DNA of 56,211 nt, filler included, from Squatina squatina (lineage: Eukaryota): NCBI GenBank assembly GCA_031763465.1. It is 3 parts of 3 records of this genome, joined end to end, with 100 filler letters (N's around TTAATTAATTAA, not from the genome) between each part and the next. Parts side by side here need not be neighbours in the genome. Positions count along the whole stretch, not along the records: positions 13,842 to 38,065 come from JARFOE010000115.1; 2 more parts are not named here. One strand, given 5' to 3'. The notes under the pieces were generated by a model. That model was not told the origin of the DNA. It saw only the letters and a list, made by a program, of their open reading frames with translations, and did no database searches. The position numbers and the translations under genes were made by a program. Below are positions 27,203 through 27,461 of the stretch, piece by piece (positions within the stretch are counted from its first letter, which is position 1; every line of letters begins with the position of its first letter).

Positions 27203-27289
27203 CATCTTCATGGCGAATGTCTTGCTGTCTCTCAAGTGTTTCACGATGTGGAGAAACCCGAAGGAGCCTTTGGGCGCCGTTGACATGAC
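27203..27289 (-). CDS. STKLD1/NEK-like Ser/Thr protein kinase, coding exon 2 (VMSTAPKGSFGFLHIVKHLRDSKTFAMKM)
   Basis: Acceptor CCCTTCTGTCTCCGCCAG|, donor ATG|GTAGGT, 87 nt phase 0-0; encodes a glycine-loop-like GSFG and the subdomain II A-x-K lysine. Confidence 0.85.
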
Positions 27290-27446
27290 CTGGCGGAGAC
27301 AGAAGGGATCGGCAGCATTATTCCTGAATGAACAGCGCTTAGTGAAAGCTCACACCTCTCAGTGAAAGAATGCGGGACGGGGATTGTGAAGCTGGCGGGC
27401 GGAGGGAGGGGGAGAGGCAGGCGGGAGGGAGAGGCGGAGACTTTAC

Positions 27447-27461
27447 CTCATAGTTGTCCAT
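27447..27461 (-). CDS. STKLD1/NEK-like kinase, coding exon 1 (MDNYE)
   Basis: Strong Kozak GGCGCCATGG, donor GAG|GTAAAG; joins exon 2 in frame to give a typical M-x-x-Y-E-V kinase N-terminus. Confidence 0.75.

Follow-up and report, generated by a model that had tools for sequence, protein, structure and literature searches.

The question raised by this locus is which gene owns two small predicted exons on the minus strand of Squatina squatina DNA, downstream of CAMKMT, and whether that gene encodes a distinct active kinase. The window, meaning the whole stretch of DNA that was analyzed, comprises 56,211 nucleotides, filler included, from assembly GCA_031763465.1, of which positions 13842 to 38065 come from record JARFOE010000115.1. 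The original prediction saw here the start of an STKLD1/NEK-like kinase downstream of CAMKMT, either a distinct paralog or an uncharacterised kinase, possibly lost in mammals. The two exons are a correct sighting, but of an already known gene: with a probability of about 0.8, they would constitute the 5' end of the S. squatina ortholog of STKLD1 (SgK071/C9orf96).

The predicted first coding exon (27461-27447, minus strand) has 15 nt and 5 codons, MDNYE, with its ATG in a strong Kozak context (GGCGCC-ATG-G) and a GTAAAG donor. Predicted intron 1 (27446-27290, minus strand) is a 157-nt GT-AG intron in phase 0, and the predicted second coding exon (27289-27203, minus strand), with 87 nt and 29 codons running from the glycine loop to the beta-3 lysine, is open throughout in phase 0 and is followed by a GTAGGT donor. 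The proposed 15-nt exon with a Kozak ATG, joined in frame through canonical splice sites to an 87-nt exon, is thereby recovered on the minus strand. By simple, home-made splice-site matrices, which give rough scores, the exon 2 acceptor is among the best 0.4% of the 3325 AG sites that could be scored on the minus strand, and the two donors are among the best 1.3% and 1.9% of its 2633 GT sites, values comparable to those of true CAMKMT exons. A search of sequencing runs listed no RNA run with the locus, and 20 of its 24 rows showed small shares of 0.05 to 0.15, which counts neither for nor against splicing. A sub-profile of the corresponding STKLD1 columns, run against 3471 six-frame peptides of the window, detected exon 2 with an E value of 2.7e-13, the next best peptide having an E value of 1.1. 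Similarly, tblastn with Hemiscyllium STKLD1 found exon 2 (E of 1e-9), and its list of weak hits also included MDNYE at 27461 (E of 36, not significant alone). Judged by these sequence signals, both small exons are real gene exons. A degenerate minisatellite with units of 25 to 31 bp (26976-27200) occupies the start of intron 2.

An HMMER search with exon 2 against 1.84 billion representatives returned six matches, the only full-query match of kinase type being Hemiscyllium STKLD1, a 179-aa protein (NCBI name STKLD1 isoform X2) that starts with MDNYQ and was matched over residues 5 to 35. Of the other five, four matched in several stretches to proteins that are repetitive or unrelated, and the fifth was a distant kinase at 38%. 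A word-based protein search with exon 2 and its intronic flanks gave no candidate, whereas this profile-free HMMER search did find one. A further search with the Hemiscyllium protein retrieved 288 proteins; among the 120 listed, nearly all were named STKLD1, and the top nine came from cartilaginous fishes. An Atlas search with exon 2 returned a cluster at 0.97 with Pkinase on 17% of its members, which serves as a lead only, and metagenome scans with the CAMKMT and STKLD1 alignments gave 36 and 270 pattern matches, respectively, with no confirmed relatives among them.

The layout of a 5-residue exon 1 and a 29-residue exon 2, with the same boundaries, is common to STKLD1 of Heptranchias (XP_067825543.1), Hemiscyllium (XP_060697149.1), Scyliorhinus canicula (XP_038638280.1), and Pristiophorus (UniRef100_UPI00398E6930), and identity over exon 2 is 52 to 72% in sharks. 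Exon 2 of the window is identical at 21/29 positions to that of Pristiophorus, 19/29 to that of Heptranchias, 17/29 to that of Hemiscyllium, and 15 to 16/29 to those of catsharks, compared with 8 to 9/29 for batoids and 7 to 10/29 for bony vertebrates. As a yardstick, Pristiophorus and Heptranchias share 18/29 residues, and the window exon equals or exceeds such values between sharks. Exon 2 of batoid STKLD1 is much more diverged than that of sharks, with a further eroded glycine loop. STKLD1 proteins of sharks, bony fishes, and reptiles share the 5-residue start M-[DE]-[NHK]-Y-[EQ]. In Podarcis and Falco, STKLD1 isoforms swap the first exon exactly ahead of the exon 2 block, and in Hemiscyllium and Numida, isoforms with downstream exons skipped break precisely at the end of this block. 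The phase-0 introns of the window, one behind codon 5 and one behind the residue that follows the beta-3 lysine, match these junctions, which in the relatives are deduced from protein isoforms. The suggestion of a kinase-fold start with the STKLD1 exon layout agrees with both the isoform junctions and the best matches.

A tree of 21 STKLD1 proteins, one per species, with a midpoint root and excluding NEK proteins and the exon itself (too short), separated cartilaginous from bony fishes with 100/100 support, followed the species tree, and contained no deep duplicate. When the 29 residues of exon 2 were placed on its 39 branches, the best position was sister to Pristiophorus on a branch of 0.07. 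The AU test at 0.05 rejected 34 of the 39 placements, and the five retained all lie in the part of the tree that holds Heptranchias, Pristiophorus, and the batoids. As far as 29 residues allow, the exon therefore groups as an STKLD1 ortholog, and its placement among shark STKLD1 proteins, with a short branch in a one-lineage tree, speaks against a distinct paralog.

Two explanations outside STKLD1 orthology can be weighed against these results. If the exons belonged to an ancient STKLD1- or NEK-like paralog that encodes an active kinase, is linked to CAMKMT, and has disappeared from mammals, the retained G-x-F-G and beta-3 lysine would be accounted for; the limited reach of the word-based search leaves this reading some room, as does the weak rejection of a deep placement where cartilaginous and bony fishes part (delta lnL of 3.6; AU, 0.023; KH, 0.07; SH, 0.72). 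Such a paralog is nonetheless very improbable, because the exon is 72% identical to sawshark STKLD1 compared with 24 to 34% for bony-vertebrate and 28 to 31% for batoid STKLD1, which makes it nested rather than ancient; moreover, the human pseudokinase keeps the same two motifs, and no CAMKMT-linked STKLD1-like protein was seen in annotated sharks. STKLD1 is itself present in mammals (human SgK071/STKLD1 and bovine sperm STKLD1), which removes the proposed loss from that lineage. No NEK occurred among the exon matches, and the exon was not closer to NEK than to STKLD1 in these comparisons, the tree being free of NEK sequences. A chance open frame flanked by splice-like sites, with no gene at all, might be entertained from exon 2 alone, which has no domain match in Pfam and reaches E values of only 1.3 to 1.6 against solved kinases; against the sub-profile E value of 2.7e-13 and the fit of both boundaries and a 5-codon first exon to STKLD1, that reading is effectively refuted already.

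The retained GSFG and lysine had been taken as signs of an active paralog. In an alignment with PKA, the first glycine of the window's glycine loop is replaced by proline, so that GxGxxG is not complete, and the lysine is the beta-3 lysine. The motifs tabulated for human SgK071 in the portion of PMC2639636 available to us are NPGALG, HVIK, HRN, and DLS, with the lysine kept and the first glycine and catalytic aspartate lost. Because human STKLD1 keeps both the beta-3 lysine and a partial glycine loop, neither is a sign of activity. Across 133 family proteins, many of them isoforms, the catalytic loop reads HRN in 118, HGN in 10, and HRD in none, with no match in 5; DFG occurs in 7 of the 128 with a readable loop, none of which has HRD, and in none of 10 shark and ray representatives. 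All 10 shark and ray STKLD1 proteins with a catalytic loop have HRN or HGN, not HRD. The window holds 34 of about 640 codons, and since the copy's own catalytic loop lies outside it, we infer from the relatives' lack of the catalytic aspartate that this copy is probably a pseudokinase. The comparison suggests that STKLD1 of the most recent ancestor shared by all jawed vertebrates already lacked this aspartate.

Over 620 residues, shark STKLD1 can be aligned with chain Xr of PDB 9FQR (E of 9.5e-81; 4.8e-104 with a profile). For its kinase domain, NEK kinases are the next-best matches, with 2.8e-21 for a chain that contains NEK7; NEK kinases, of which NEK7 is the nearest solved, share the N-lobe fold at far lower scores (E of 1e-21 versus 1e-81). 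Active NEKs carry HRD and DFG-type motifs, unlike the relatives of this exon. Chain Xr is labeled CFAP251 in the sequence file, yet it has a kinase fold with STKLD1 motifs. In the accessible part of PMC11779644, 9FQR is a model from bovine sperm that shows STKLD1 bound to the stalk of radial spoke 3, within a bridge between RS2 and RS3. Chain Xr is read here as STKLD1 because it carries the motifs listed for SgK071 and because the 9FQR model includes STKLD1. Mammalian STKLD1 (SgK071, C9orf96) has in common with its shark relatives an alignment over the whole length. In relatives of the window copy, the kinase domain is followed by a long helical C-terminal region. Mammalian STKLD1 also shares with the shark family the missing first loop glycine, the beta-3 lysine, and, as seen in the window copy's relatives, an asparagine replacing the catalytic aspartate. 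It differs in a far-diverged exon 2 sequence, and the bovine chain is absent from the 14 solved-kinase matches of the exon.

No later STKLD1 exon was found within the window by tblastn with 16 STKLD1 proteins, by three profiles, by a kinase-motif regular expression, or by splice-site scans; intron 2 is therefore long, or the remainder sits in gaps or on other scaffolds. The draft sequence of the window is rich in gaps, its 6043 N being spread over 43 runs. Among these are two linker-type joins (13742-13841 and 38066-38165), each with a 12-base all-frame stop linker between two blocks of 44 N. Since both joins are artificial junctions, order across them is no evidence of gene order. The last coding exon of a SOCS-box protein (13842-14199, plus strand; 118 codons to the stop; Pfam SOCS_box, E of 0.0086; Atlas SOCS_box clusters at 0.87 to 0.88, a lead only) begins at the first of these linkers, antisense to STKLD1 exon 2 and 13 kb downstream of it. 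A second CpG-rich stretch, with an observed/expected ratio of 0.85 to 0.9 and a GC content of 0.61 to 0.67, lies at 3751-4500.

The neighbor of the two exons is the anomalous part of the locus. CAMKMT lies upstream, with its penultimate coding exon at 34141-34010 and the preceding coding exon at 35562-35499, both confirmed on the minus strand, and 6.5 kb separate STKLD1 from the nearest CAMKMT exon. The consensus order, as given in the part of PMC5377540 available, places C9ORF96 head to head with SURF4. That mammalian arrangement was not seen in the S. squatina window, where a scan with short motifs found no SURF4 exon upstream and the promoter runs into a gap after 232 nt. Judged by the lengths of the sequences that carry the genes, CAMKMT and STKLD1 are on separate chromosome-scale sequences in seven of eight annotated cartilaginous fishes, a comparison that left out Pristiophorus, the closest relative: Heptranchias (92.5 and 37.6 Mb for the CAMKMT and STKLD1 sequences, respectively), Mustelus (103.8 and 109.0 Mb), S. 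canicula (313.6 and 71.0 Mb), S. torazame (426.2 and 113.6 Mb), Heterodontus (120.9 and 62.8 Mb), Hypanus (112.3 and 83.7 Mb), and Narcine (321.5 and 494.5 Mb). The exception is Hemitrygon, in which both are on a 186.2-Mb sequence, 1628 accession numbers apart. The position beside CAMKMT rather than SURF4, which the original prediction had pointed out, stands as an anomaly but is not common to annotated sharks and rays. A paper on a CAMKMT-linked STKLD1 was not found in the literature, judged by titles and the openings of abstracts.

Five assembly gaps, none with overlapping flanks, lie between 27693 and 34010. A repeat at 28625-28874, which we take to be SINE-like, abuts a 100-N gap (28875-28974), and this is the candidate mis-join point that we infer; the repeat is the only interspersed one within 13842-38065 with other copies in the window, and it ends at the gap. 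GC content across the gaps is 0.39 to 0.42, with no useful difference. The conserved last exon of CAMKMT was found nowhere in the window (best E of 0.14, versus 3e-37 for a control exon), but its absence is weak evidence of a mis-join because the CAMKMT exon preceding 35562 is also missing, over 20 kb searched. Given the separation of the two genes in seven of eight species, the five gaps, one of them abutting a SINE, and the missing last exon, a scaffold mis-join is the most likely source of the adjacency, by about 3 to 1 over a true order if the gene is the ortholog, and an STKLD1 ortholog brought beside CAMKMT in this way is the reading we favor for the locus as a whole, if with reserve. 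It is rather doubtful that the adjacency is real, with STKLD1 or a young duplicate having come to lie beside the 3' end of CAMKMT in this shark lineage, which is probably squalomorph; a true relocation of the ortholog itself is less likely still. A real adjacency would be an order unseen in the eight annotated cartilaginous fishes, with the last CAMKMT exon possibly displaced or STKLD1 possibly nested before it. A recent lineage-specific duplicate, either whole or a 5' fragment, with the original at the ancestral locus, appears improbable. It would fit the neighborhood, unlike that in seven of eight annotated relatives, and the lack of a later exon within 27 kb downstream, and a young copy would likewise be placed inside shark STKLD1; however, half of those 27 kb lie past the linker at 13742-13841 and 11% of the window is N, the intact ATG, splice sites, frame, and X-box together with the short branch (0.07) indicate no decay, and no shark had two distinct STKLD1 loci among the 120 listed of 288 matches.

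The start of the gene lies in a CpG-rich promoter and first-exon region (27201-27693; observed/expected CpG of 0.75 and GC of 0.59 in 27251-27750) that ends at the gap 27694-27793, 232 nt upstream of exon 1, past which the CpG count drops. A candidate palindrome at 27491-27504, 30 to 43 nt upstream of the ATG, is presumably X-box-like (RFX); it is the single match to the X-box consensus in 56 kb, compared with 0.02 expected. What we take to be a CRE-like TGACGTC and an E-box-like GTCACGTG lie at 27600-27693, next to the gap, and might belong to a bidirectional promoter. Functional X-boxes lie mostly less than 500 bp from the start site, according to the portion of PMC5838959 available. No alias of STKLD1 turned up in four supplementary text files that accompany the RFX2 paper PMC4498915, so that these files lend no support to RFX control. 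In the mechanism proposed here, RFX factors acting through the X-box would drive transcription of STKLD1 from the CpG-rich promoter in flagellated cells, and the gene would continue via a long intron 2 to exons beyond the window or in gaps. The product would have about 630 to 650 aa, its pseudokinase domain at the N terminus being followed by a long, helical C-terminal part. By analogy with bovine STKLD1, it may have a noncatalytic role in sperm radial spoke 3, as a subunit of structural or scaffold type.

At least 11 cartilaginous fishes already have proteins under the name STKLD1, and nothing sets the two exons apart from the usual beginning of this known sperm-tail pseudokinase gene; the available portions of PMC12837073 and PMC8016878 added nothing decisive. 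Among public STKLD1 models, those of Mustelus and Heterodontus, isoform X2 of S. torazame, and one of Latimeria begin at exon 3 or later. The models of Heptranchias, Pristiophorus, and Heterodontus also stop early, at 432 to 506 aa. Exons 1 and 2 of the window are useful because several public models begin at exon 3 or later, and the gain is mostly one of annotation, with little beyond. The proximity to CAMKMT, if false, would flag a chimeric scaffold and, if true, would provide a modest marker of a lineage-specific rearrangement.
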